Shown here piece after piece: positions 1-17,600 of a stretch of DNA of 64,000 nt. This DNA is from Thermodesulfovibrionia bacterium (GTDB taxonomy: Bacteria; Nitrospirota; Thermodesulfovibrionia; UBA6902). The notes below the pieces were generated by a model. The model was not told the origin of the DNA. It was given only the letters and a program-made list of their open reading frames with translations, and made no database searches. Within the stretch, counting starts at the first letter, position 1. Each line of letters opens with the position of its first letter. A program made the translations under genes and the position numbers. The stretch is taken from assembly GCA_020057065.1 (NCBI GenBank), contig JAGVGM010000349.1:28647-92646 (forward strand), written 5' to 3'.

Positions 1-1881
1 TATACTGCGAACTTCACGACACAGTATCAGCTGACTGCAAATGCAAGCCCATCAGCAGGCGGAAGCGTAAGCCCGAACTGTCCGTCAGGCTGCTGGTATA
101 ACAGCGGTGCCCTGGTATCAGTAATTGCTGCATCAAACGCCGGTTATGCCTTTGCAAACTGGTCAGGCGCCTGCACAGGAAACGGAACCTGCAGCGTTAC
201 AATGGATGCGGCAAAGTCAGTTTCGGCAAACTTTGTATTAACACCATCAATAACAGTCACAACCTCACCGGCAGGCCGGCAGATCACTGTTGACGGAGTA
301 AATTACATAGCGACTCAGACATTTATCTGGACAGCAGGTTCATCACATACTATCGGAGTATCATCACCGCAGGTCCGGGAAGGGACAGGATATTTTTACG
401 CCTCATGGAGCGACGCAGGAGCGCAGTCACACACAATAATAACACCTTCTTCCGCAACGGCCTATACTGCGAACTTCACGATACGGTATCAGTTAACTAC
501 AAATGCAAGCCCTTCAGCAGGCGGAAGCGTCAGCCCGATCTGTCCATCAGGTTGCTGGAATGACAGCGGCGCCTTGGTATCAGTAACTGCTGCATCAAAA
601 GCCGGTTATGCCTTTGCAAACTGGTCAGGCGCATGCACAGGAAACGGGGCATGCAGTGTTACAATGAGTGCGGCAAAGTCCGTTACGGCAAACTTCTGCG
701 CATTGAGCACCTATTACAGTGATTCAGATAAAGATGGATACGGCAATTCTTCAGTCTCAACGCAGGCATGCACAAAGCCGTTGGGATATGTGACGAACAA
801 TTCGGACTGTGATGATGCCAATTCAGCGATCAAGCCCGAGGCAACAGAGATATGCGACGGCGTTGACAATGACTGCAACACTTCAACCTCTGACGGCTCA
901 GGAGAGAACTGGTATTATGGGTCCTGTGACGGCGCTGATCAGGACCTTTGCAATGAAGGCACATACCAGTGCAGCAATGGACAGAAGATATGCTCTGATA
1001 ATACAGGGAACAATGTGGAACTCTGTGACGGTGTGGACAATGACTGCAATGGGCTTACAGATGAAGGTTTTGCGGATTCAGACAGCGACAAGATAGGCGA
1101 TGCCTGTGACAACTGTCCGAACACTGCCAACCCCGACCAACTCGACACAGACGCTGACGGCATCGGCGACGCCTGCGATCCCGATGATGACAATGACGGC
1201 ATTCCTGATTATTGGGAACTTCAGTATGGTTTAGACCCCAAGAAAAGTTTAGATGCAGCAGAGGACCCTGACAAGGACGGGTTCACTAATCTGCAGGAAT
1301 ACCAGTGGAACACGGACCCGAATGACCCTGCATCAAAACCAATGACCGTAAAAATCAATATTGAAAAGGGATTTAACCTGATCAGTTATTCAAGAAAGAG
1401 TATTCCCGCTATCAGTGCCTTTGATTTCATAAAGATGCTTGGCAGTTCACAGGAGCTTGAGAGCATGTTGAAATTCGACAGTACCTCCGGACGGTATAAG
1501 GAAGTAAGGTACAATGCTTTGGGTGAACCTGAAGGGGACGACTTTGAACTTGTAAACGGAGAAGGCTATATTGTCTACTCAAAGGTTCAAAAGACAGTTG
1601 AACTGATCTTCAGCAATGAGTGTTCAGTAGCGGGGCTGAAGACAGGAGTGAATTTGTTAGGCTCTTCATGCTTTTCTGTAAACATGACAGCATATCAGCT
1701 TCTCCAGAATATCGGTAATGACACAGTCGTCTCCGGTATACAGCGATATAACACTGAGACTGGCAAATTCGAGACCGCAGGCTATCTTAACGGCCAGCCT
1801 GCAGGCGTGAACTTCCTGATAAAAGCAGGCGAGGGGTATTTTATCTATATGAAAAAGGATGTGAGCGGCTTTAAGCCGTGA
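1..1881 (+). CDS. Large modular secreted/surface protein, 5'-partial (InlB B-repeat-like units, Cys-rich MopE-like repeats, TSP3 repeats, shared C-terminal domain)
   Basis: Frame 1 is open from base 1 ([25 protein letters not shown]...). Contains [13 protein letters not shown]...CSVTM...VTANF repeats, ICDGVDNDC motifs and [12 protein letters not shown] TSP3 motifs; ends [17 protein letters not shown]. Confidence 0.85.
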
Positions 1882-2058
1882 GAATTTAGAAAAGACAGTT
1901 GCGAGTTACTAGTTGCGAGTAACGGGAAAAGATACAGGATGTGACGGGGTTTAAGCCGTAGAGATGAAGCGAGGAAGTTGGTAAGCGCGGAAGCGTGAAA
2001 GACTTAAACTGACCGATGCATTATATTTTACTGACCGCTGATAGCTGACTGCTGAGAG
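1879..2058 (+). repeat. Conserved 3' flank of the giant genes with heptamer/octamer short repeats (partial copies at 7921-8009 and 13709-13880)
   Basis: TGAGAATT..AAAAGACAGTTGCGAGTTAC(G)AGTTGCG follows three genes; AAGCGCGGAAGCG..GAAAGACTTAAACTGACC..GCTGATAGCTGA is shared by the first and third copies. Confidence 0.85.
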
Positions 2059-17000: not shown

Positions 17001-17600
17001 GGCTTCAGTAACTTTCGCGAATATCAATGGAACACCGACCCGAATGATCCTGCATCAAAACCAGTAAATGTAATGATCGATCTTAAGCAGGGATTTAATC
17101 TGATCAGTTATTCAGGGAAGGGCAATCCCGTGGGCAAGGCCTTTGATCTCATCAAGATGCTTGGCAGTTCTCAGGAGATAGAGAGCGTGATGAAATTCGG
17201 TGCCTCAGGCGATTATAAGGAAGTGAGGTACAATGCTTTAGGTGAGCCTGAAGGAGACGATTATGAACTTGTGAATGGAGAAGGATATATAGTCTACTCA
17301 AAGGTTGCAAAGACAGTTGAACTGATCTTCAGCAATGAGTGTGCAGTAACGGGGTTAAAAATTGGAGTGAATCTGATAGGCTATCCATGCGTTTCTGTAA
17401 ACATGACAGTTTATCAACTTCTTCAGAAGATCGGTATTGATACCGTTGTCTCCGGTATACAGCGATATAACACTGAGACTGGCAAGTTCGAGACTGCGGA
17501 TTACCTCAGCGGTCTGCCTGCTGGCGTGAACTTTCAGATAAAGGCAGGGGAAGGGTATTTTATTTATATGAGAAAGGATGTGATGGGCTTTCAGCCGTAA
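14010..17600 (+). CDS. Large modular secreted protein: Ig/cadherin-like domain, many TSP3 repeats, HExxH zinc peptidase (M64-like), shared C-terminal domain
   Basis: Signal peptide; CDDRDACTADSC; IDIVFV...FNFY...HETMHSVFGLVDEY; its C-terminal half is paralogous to 3439-7923. Confidence 0.85.
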   Translation: MKNTALYKLMYVIFILLTVAALSYPSALIAQGFDCSTMNCDDRDACTADSCDIEIGCVNTYTCSAPRIKGAPVTNATVGTLYQYSPQVLNPSGNQLTYTLDLPAGMIGGFTGETLVMRWLPILSEVGIRHVSIRVEDNVTAEFDTQEYDITVTSTDPVCPGGRTDTDSDGISDVCDNCPSVSNSTQKDSDRDGVGNSCDNCPDSPNPGQSDEDGDGIGDACDEVEVTLTPSNPAPDDFIIIDAAYGANVPPNPFIQILLNRALVKECSGTTCRYSGGPFRDGFSYQVRYKNTNEVFVEVPEKFISCIVDCDSDGILNQDDNCPKVVNPDQKDSDSQLKCQILGGVVQCDILQGDGAGDACDNCPSKYNSDQKDSDNDGIGDECDNCKLAANPAQADTDGDKVGDNCDNCIYDSNSGQLNSDNDPMGNACDDDDDNDGCPDAKDPKPAIFSPDNDADGLASDCDNCPVNFNPDQDDTIISYDGVGDACDCYDVFKGPNETGVDCGGVCSSCVPCTWCGSSVEPVRIKGKPNSGKIDIVFVPHEDIKDFMFGFDSQVLSTIREGYFTMDQMSVDPISAGYKDKFNFYKYKAGYGTDYGCTHKVPGYYAYLSWLSQCGICGMPNKPSCDFCALIKPLYFWEVAPFADSGGILSQTGTKGCANALGAPSDWTANAFDRDVEVHETMHSVFGLVDEYCGKTLYTQLSKNSNIWSTKSGCESEAATEGWTLGTCRKIENPNTGCSKNWWRYDPDTPDQDVMTCSCNTYRFYEADARRVNYIFNNWPSSNTKGVLMNFNITSGAMTFLGATVVDDHPDIGLQYAHFIGEAISARGGVINIFGIWDPRIKVGDDAPVSDNENFHIIIPFYDDLKRFNINDPESGNSLITVDLTALLSRYCYSTNYESQECQTVLDLDGDGASGMEDNCPAVANPDQRDSDSDRTGDICDNCRDTFNPDQLDTDYDGYGDACDPDDDNDGIPDDWEIQYRLDPKNAADATGDPDNDGFSNFREYQWNTDPNDPASKPVNVMIDLKQGFNLISYSGKGNPVGKAFDLIKMLGSSQEIESVMKFGASGDYKEVRYNALGEPEGDDYELVNGEGYIVYSKVAKTVELIFSNECAVTGLKIGVNLIGYPCVSVNMTVYQLLQKIGIDTVVSGIQRYNTETGKFETADYLSGLPAGVNFQIKAGEGYFIYMRKDVMGFQP

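Follow-up and report, generated by a model that had tools for sequence, protein, structure and literature searches.

Four giant genes and their common C-terminal domain

The window, a stretch of 64,000 nucleotides (nt) from a Thermodesulfovibrionia bacterium (GenBank contig JAGVGM010000349.1; here G000:C150:28647-92646, of a 4.16 Mb genome in 377 contigs), opens inside the first of four giant open reading frames (ORFs) that lie in tandem on the plus strand. The list of ORFs and their translations revealed that one domain of about 177 amino acids (aa), here termed the tail, closes all four, with the stop codon directly after each. We tentatively read this tail as a shared attachment or binding module of secreted multidomain proteins. 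Over the last 207 aa or so, genes 2, 3 and 4 presented 73, 51 and 78% identity to gene 1, with a mean column identity of 78%. A hidden Markov model (HMM) built from the four tails scored E-values of 1e-95 to 1e-102 on those tails, thus their likeness is far beyond chance. The features are as follows.

1..1881, plus strand: gene 1, 3' part, 5'-open in the window; the full gene encodes 2,179 aa and starts at C150:23988, upstream of the window
1..1881 and upstream, plus strand: architecture of gene 1, with DUF11, six CARDB stretches, InlB B-repeats, MopE, TSP3 and tail
1074..1881, plus strand: 3' cassette of gene 1, about 800 nt (TSP3 stalk and tail), delimited by blastn
1348-1878, plus strand: tail of gene 1, module 1 and module 2
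1348..1608, plus strand: module 1 of this tail, about 87 aa
1609..1878, plus strand: module 2 of this tail, about 90 aa, with a conserved cysteine pair and a near-invariant C-terminal stretch ending in GFxP
3439..7923, plus strand: gene 2, 1,494 aa, with signal peptide (by eye, about aa 1-35), MopE-type cysteine repeats, TSP3, HExxH...DEY (M64-like) peptidase head, TSP3 stalk and tail
7390..7920, plus strand: tail of gene 2, 177 aa
9821..13711, plus strand: gene 3, 1,296 aa, with signal peptide (by eye, about aa 1-24), two Lcl_C domains, MopE, TSP3, HExxHxxGxxH metallopeptidase, TSP3 stalk and tail
13178..13708, plus strand: tail of gene 3, 177 aa; at 51% identity to the tail of gene 1 it diverges most within the set
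14010..17600, plus strand: gene 4, 1,196 aa, with signal peptide (by eye, about aa 1-30), TSP3 repeats, M64-like head, TSP3 stalk and tail
17070..17597, plus strand: tail of gene 4, 176 aa

A preliminary description of this DNA, drawn from the letters and translations, had proposed four tandem genes with one terminal domain behind TSP3 repeats and with exchangeable heads. All four ORFs exist, TSP3 repeats (PF02412, PF18884) were detected upstream of every tail, and the InlB-like and Lcl heads were confirmed by Pfam matches: InlB B-repeats in gene 1 (PF18998, E 5.8e-25) and two copies of Lcl_C in gene 3 (PF07603, E 2.5e-57). The peptidase heads fared less uniformly. In gene 3 the zinc site HELGHNLGLRH, read in the translation, fits the metzincin motif HExxHxxGxxH, but the match to Reprolysin_3 stayed below threshold (20.9 bits, cut-off 22.4). 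The heads of genes 2 and 4, which share 53% identity with each other, contain HExxH followed by DEY, e.g., HETMHSVFGLVDEY, a combination typical of M64. The Pfam model for this family (PF09471) remained below its gathering score (12.3 bits, cut-off 26, E 0.092), and a sequence relative in the Protein Data Bank (PDB) was not found. The name M64-like is therefore used in a weak sense. N-termini resembling signal peptides were recognised by eye on genes 2, 3 and 4.

The tail is not restricted to the window. An ORF-level HMM search of the genome yielded 16 matches: 11 full tails and one single-module tail that all end exactly at the stop codon, one tail cut by a TAG seven codons early, one fragment of 63 aa, and two internal copies on contig C73 (aa 403-574 of 1,392 and aa 778-966 of 1,158), which are followed by TIG and by Glucodextran_B (immunoglobulin-like, Ig-like) domains, respectively. 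The early TAG lies in a protein with M19 dipeptidase, CARDB and MopE domains (L032:227-4363, i.e., C150:18126-22262); its counterpart in the metagenome-assembled genome (MAG) DeMMO3_26, P0155, is intact. Eight copies on C150 form one array of at least 46 kb that reaches upstream of the window. The heads in this genome belong to the following types: Lcl_C, LCAT/PGAP1-type lipase (two proteins), M19 dipeptidase, Kazal inhibitor, CARDB/DUF11/InlB-repeat, M64-like peptidase (two proteins), Lcl_C with metzincin, M4 thermolysin, FG-GAP, RHS and M10 matrixin.

Another giant gene of the window, starting at 59879, had been named as a candidate for the same ending. This gene ends at C150:93264 in a CARDB-like domain and was not matched by the tail HMM. 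Together with the first ORF of the contig (L031:1-2091) it represents a pair of giant TSP3/MopE proteins ending in CARDB, which points to CARDB as another exchangeable C-terminal domain here. CARDB (PF07705) resembles the tail in closing giant TSP3/MopE proteins on the same contig, but it is an unrelated sequence family, and the tail HMM is silent on the genes that end in it.

Build and distribution of the tail

The two internal halves noted in the preliminary description are homologous: an alignment of half 1 with half 2 by hhalign gave a probability of 99.7% and an E-value of 1.4e-26 at 24% identity over 79 columns, thus the tail is a tandem duplication of a module of about 88 aa. AlphaFold2, run on an alignment of 13 sequences, modelled the whole tail with a mean local confidence (pLDDT) of 89.2 and a global score (pTM) of 0.84, and module 2 alone with values of 87.6 and 0.77. 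Each module is predicted to consist of a beta-hairpin, one alpha-helix and five further beta-strands. These models support one shared, autonomous domain of about 175 aa. Complex prediction for two tail copies (alignment A2) gave a score of 0.01, where the mark was 0.42; this value was counted neither for nor against binding.

Among 147 family instances from public sequences, described below, the median pairwise identity was 35%, and module 2 was conserved better than module 1. Its signature reads C..L..G.N..G..C ... QR.N..tG.FE ... G..F.I..GE.Y...M. The two cysteines were kept in 89% and 93% of the instances, a conservation that suggests a disulfide, and this pair probably forms one. The most conserved surface of the tail also lies in module 2. 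Upstream of the window, a protein of 411 aa combines a signal peptide, two Kazal domains and MopE with module 2 alone, which makes module 2 look like the core unit. The near-invariant end was borne out as well: the last 41 aa or so had a mean identity of 80% among 11 paralogues, compared to 40-53% in the rest of the tail. In this stretch only 60% of the identical residues used the same codon (43-48% elsewhere in the tail), hence the conservation is mainly due to purifying selection on the protein and not just to recent gene conversion.

That the tail matches no recognised family also held. Up to E <= 10, no Pfam-A family covered the domain, whether in our tails or in a diverse set of 26 members, and for the same sequences no NCBIfam model covered it at E <= 1, in a library that includes curated models of sorting domains. 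A sequence profile search of the PDB produced only spurious matches, of which a segment of a malate dehydrogenase ranked first with E 0.039. Foldseek obtained nothing at E <= 1e-3 for the whole tail against PDB and BFVD or for module 2 against PDB, with best query-normalised TM-scores of 0.22, 0.24 and 0.37, respectively. A likeness to beta-grasp or cupin folds among the low-ranking Foldseek matches was dropped, the TM-scores being too low. In the ESM Atlas the nearest clusters (0.95-0.96) were unnamed hypothetical proteins, labelled mostly Thermoplasmatota, a label of little weight; named entries reached at most 0.85 and had no Pfam family. A description of the domain was not found in the literature, in a search that was of necessity indirect for a domain without a name. 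In the resources searched, the family appears to be undescribed, large and without a solved structural relative. Terminal modules that have no catalytic role and are shared among secreted multidomain proteins are, as a kind, well known.

A word-indexed homologue search with the tail region had returned only 11 proteins and was replaced by a profile search through all of 1.84 billion cluster representatives. Clustered at 50% identity, the family comprised 1,681 clusters at E <= 1e-3, 654 at E <= 1e-10 and 231 at E <= 1e-30. Positions and architectures were read from the best 150 or so of the 1,681 matches (152 proteins), which held 147 near-full-length instances; 14 partial ones were set aside. 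In this sample the domain ended within 10 aa of the C-terminus in 107 instances, was internal in 31 and N-terminal in nine. Internal copies were followed by TIG, Big_1, Glucodextran_B, Big_7 or cadherin-like domains, and the heads of such proteins included M10 peptidases, PQQ-type beta-propellers, FG-GAP/ASPIC and a squalene-cyclase/TED-like fold. The domain always stood beside TSP3, MopE, Ig-like or CARDB domains, and every architecture seen was of an extracellular type. By a crude hydrophobicity rule, 70 of the 127 members starting with methionine had a signal-like N-terminus; of the remaining 57, most start within an extracellular domain and resemble fragments. Some small proteins consist of a signal peptide and little beyond the tail domain.

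The cultured carriers were two Microbulbifer strains and Agarilytica rhodophyticola, whose proteins are annotated only by their other domains. Further carriers were Thermodesulfovibrionia and Nitrospirota MAGs and two 'Deltaproteobacteria' MAGs, while a Bacteroidales MAG encodes a shorter single module and a Thermoprotei MAG a weak single-module piece. The family is thus present in several bacterial phyla and probably in archaea. In the sample of the phylum, seven of 400 other genomes had the domain, with one or two copies each, and one of 40 close relatives had it. Multi-copy carriers were the genome studied here (16 matches), the DeMMO3_26 MAG (nine, in arrays) and SZUA-242 (five).

Three small stand-alone relatives (P0105, P0131, P0114) were matched by the NCBIfam model NF058579 for PamT, the tip pilin of the Pam pilus of candidate phyla radiation (CPR) bacteria, with 18-24 bits at a cut-off of 240. 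The similarity concerns the start of the model and about 80 aa of these proteins, the N-terminal residues 5-86 (on PamT, see PMC13278184). Lying outside the tail domain, this weak match was rejected as an identification of the tail; it hints that some members of the family could be fibre parts.

Possible roles as attachment module or sorting signal

A tail shared by heads of such different kinds invites comparison with what other organisms place in the same position. The M64-like heads had 71 matches, 69 of them homologues from outside the window. The HExxH...DEY motif was present in 63 of the 69, and one remote homologue (P0197) bears a precomputed PF09471 label. A single homologue had the tail. 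According to a crude heuristic, 14 ended in a hydrophobic helix followed by a basic stretch, a PGF motif being present in five of the 14, and other C-termini were dockerin (precomputed PF00404), CARDB, PPC (PF04151) or LamG. The slot of the tail is thus often filled by anchoring or attachment devices. Many of these homologues end in a recurrent unnamed C-terminal motif, about ...G.L.DG.P.EGED.V.I..KK, as listed for P0168, P0170, P0173, P0195, P0187, P0205, P0220 and P0221.

In the mechanism that we propose, a cassette of a calcium-binding TSP3 repeat stalk and the tail has been copied onto at least 14 multidomain proteins, presumably exported by the Sec system. The heads on this cassette would comprise peptidases (M4, M10, M19, M64-like, metzincin), lipase/esterase folds, Kazal, Lcl_C, InlB-repeat, FG-GAP and RHS domains. 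The tail would be a common non-catalytic attachment module at the far end of the stalk, by which all heads would be held to the same ligand outside the cell, a part of either the envelope or the matrix, and it would not be a cleavable secretion signal. A binding-type function is favoured by the autonomous fold, by its occurrence as nearly the sole globular part of small secreted proteins, by its distal place on the stalk and by the surface conservation of module 2. That the tail is a shared attachment or binding module rather than a dedicated sorting signal is the explanation we prefer, though with a confidence that stays somewhat short of even. Anchoring is the best guess for the kind of function, with some indirect support from the membrane anchors on homologous heads.

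Several observations weigh against an attachment module. The C-terminus is sharply conserved, with a consensus V-x-G-F-x-P, and in 58 of the 107 C-terminal instances the protein stops precisely where the alignment does, in 95 no more than three residues away; such sharp ends would also suit a recognised C-terminal signal. Carbohydrate-binding modules are typically rich in tryptophan. The tails have none or one tryptophan each and are mildly acidic (isoelectric points of 4.6-6.8 in 12 of 13), and so indicate neither an electrostatic anchor nor a classic carbohydrate-binding platform; they bear little resemblance to the classic basic domains that bind envelopes, and electrostatic anchoring was rejected, as the tails are not basic. 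Foldseek gave no fold like that of a lectin or carbohydrate-binding module. Furthermore, 50 of the 69 head homologues were left unclassed by the heuristic, many of them fragments limited by their contigs, which weakens the argument from equivalent positions.

The preliminary description had seen in the tail a dedicated sorting, anchoring or assembly domain, to be checked for strict C-terminal position. Were the tail a signal for sorting or secretion, a dedicated machinery would recognise it and carry out outer-membrane translocation or attachment in the manner of the type IX secretion system (T9SS), and the tail might be cleaved or covalently attached afterwards. The domain occurs on many unrelated Sec-dependent cargo proteins within one genome, mostly at their very end and with the GFxP terminus, and its last 41 aa are its most conserved part. 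The genome is diderm-like and has five secretin genes, thus passage of the outer membrane would be needed. The C-terminal sorting domain of the T9SS (Por_Secre_tail, PF18962/TIGR04183) is likewise small, beta-rich and C-terminal on many unrelated Sec-dependent hydrolases and adhesins, in many copies per genome. The tail differs from it in being twice as long, duplicated, with a helix in each module, not strictly C-terminal and mainly found outside Bacteroidota; an HMM match was missing for the tails and for the 26 members. PF18962 was not found in the genome, and the control genomes were silent as well.

Strict C-terminal position applied to the four genes of the window but not to the family: 40 of 147 instances are internal or N-terminal, and two internal copies lie in this genome. 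Internal occurrence had been named in the preliminary description as a sign against its proposal, and it was observed. Partner genes did not appear either. Across 18 stretches (17 loci and the first 20.4 kb of the window, ORFs of at least 80 aa) no small gene, transporter or scaffold gene recurred beside the tail genes; the clusters obtained were only antisense ORFs inside the tails and one repeated cassette of small ORFs without a Pfam match. Many carriers have a single copy, and the family extends to unrelated types of envelope (Gammaproteobacteria, a Bacteroidales MAG, probably archaea). These properties, together with the silence of all NCBIfam and Pfam models of sorting domains, argue against a dedicated C-terminal sorting signal, which we consider unlikely. 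Anchoring tags of the PGF-CTERM and PEP-CTERM type and plain transmembrane anchors take an equivalent position after the TSP3 stalk in the 14 head homologues mentioned above. The tail ends in GFxP without a hydrophobic helix or a basic cluster, and NCBIfam CTERM models did not match it. Of the surface-display system proposed in the preliminary description, the shared autonomous domain on varied extracellular heads persisted, while strict C-terminal position and recurrent partner genes did not.

A C-terminal extension may also act within its own protein, aiding folding, stability or latency before being trimmed, as described for PPC domains. Many heads are indeed peptidases (M4, M10, M19, M64-like, metzincin, S8), and one M64-like head homologue carries PPC. 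Like the tail, PPC and PKD extensions are non-catalytic beta domains at the C-terminus of secreted metallo- and serine peptidases. Such a helper role seems improbable for the tail, which is not matched by the PPC model, occurs also on non-enzymes (Kazal, Lcl_C, InlB-repeat, RHS, FG-GAP) and on small proteins with little else, and is parted from the heads by a long TSP3 stalk.

Tails that bind each other or a scaffold would assemble a multi-enzyme complex on the surface, in the style of dockerin and cohesin. The dockerin type I (PF00404) shares with the tail a duplicated module tied to calcium-binding sequence, diverse enzymes as partners and a tolerance of internal positions, and true dockerins take the slot of the tail in some head homologues. 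The genome encodes one cohesin-like domain (PF00963, 36.4 bits) in an open frame of 500 aa (G000:C268:1916-2272, minus strand), unlinked to the array and to any other tail gene. A dockerin is a helical, EF-hand-like pair of about 70 aa. The tail has about 175 aa, is predicted to be beta-rich with one helix per module and has no dockerin HMM match, and a repeated scaffold was not found near any tail gene, so that this assembly role is a rather poor prospect. Equally slight is the chance that the tail serves as the address label of an undescribed system for surface display or retention, in which a conserved receptor, a protein or a glycan of envelope or matrix, would capture the GFxP-terminated module, and bacteria, perhaps also archaea, would load interchangeable enzymes, inhibitors and adhesins onto calcium-stiffened surface stalks by a fold without solved relative.

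Origin and surroundings of the array

The 3' cassette of about 800 nt, stalk and tail, is common to genes 1, 2 and 4 and to the upstream M19 gene, with a nucleotide identity of 77-82% (blastn). To the other genes of the array only the last 150-215 nt align (72-81% identity), in the case of gene 3 the last 210 nt or so. The contig belongs to this lineage, since the DnaB protein that it encodes shares 98, 93 and 92% identity with those of three genomes of the same genus. In one genome of the genus (G009, 99% complete), the match to C150:48019 lies 2.7 kb from DNA syntenic to other contigs of our genome, with no array in between. The array, at least 46 kb long, thus behaves like an island. Against this stands the contig of the closest relative (G002, C3), which starts 1.7 kb past the end of the array, thus the absence from relatives may in part be an artefact of assembly. 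Repeated tails break MAG assemblies, so absence from MAGs is soft evidence, and the family is probably under-counted in them. A tRNA-Arg(CCT) gene (17802-17876) follows the last tail gene at a distance of 200 nt, close to where the segment specific to our genome ends on the right, and may mark the island boundary; at the equivalent junction of G009, a search of 6 kb revealed no tRNA.

Gene pairs of the toxin-antitoxin type occupy gaps among the giant genes and the DNA that follows closely on them. A ParE toxin (8396-8701, E 5.9e-17) is preceded by a 62-aa ORF (pair at 8220-8701), DUF433 and DUF5615 ORFs form a second pair (9032-9346 and 9310-9651), and in the third a Zeta-toxin-like ATPase (18181-18780, minus strand) adjoins a 63-aa ORF (pair at 18012-18780, minus strand). 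The cassette of small ORFs occurs between giant genes at two places of the array, at 2650-3376 and upstream of the window at L031:2946-3680 on C150; its 137-aa ORF (2650-3063, minus strand) appeared PIN-like by eye and had no Pfam match. Further along the window, a fusion protein of 1,450 aa (20357-24709) combines two BcrAD/BadFG-type activase ATPase stretches with DUF2229. An SNF2-family helicase (45095-47554) adjoins a DUF6079 protein of 1,571 aa (48996-53711) that has a weak match to BrxC/BrxD-like ATPases; the two could be a defence-type pair.

The expansion to 16 copies, in an island-like array amid toxin-antitoxin genes, is a clear example of cassette shuffling that builds new secreted proteins. 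The structure of the family is predicted with confidence, yet there is no curated model for it; a name would help to annotate thousands of giant proteins now called 'hypothetical', and the cultured carriers Microbulbifer and Agarilytica open the family to experiments. Should the tail prove to be a shared attachment module, a fusion of the tail to a reporter would give a handle for finding its ligand, and the module would define how a group of subsurface bacteria organises its secreted proteases, lipases, inhibitors and adhesins.

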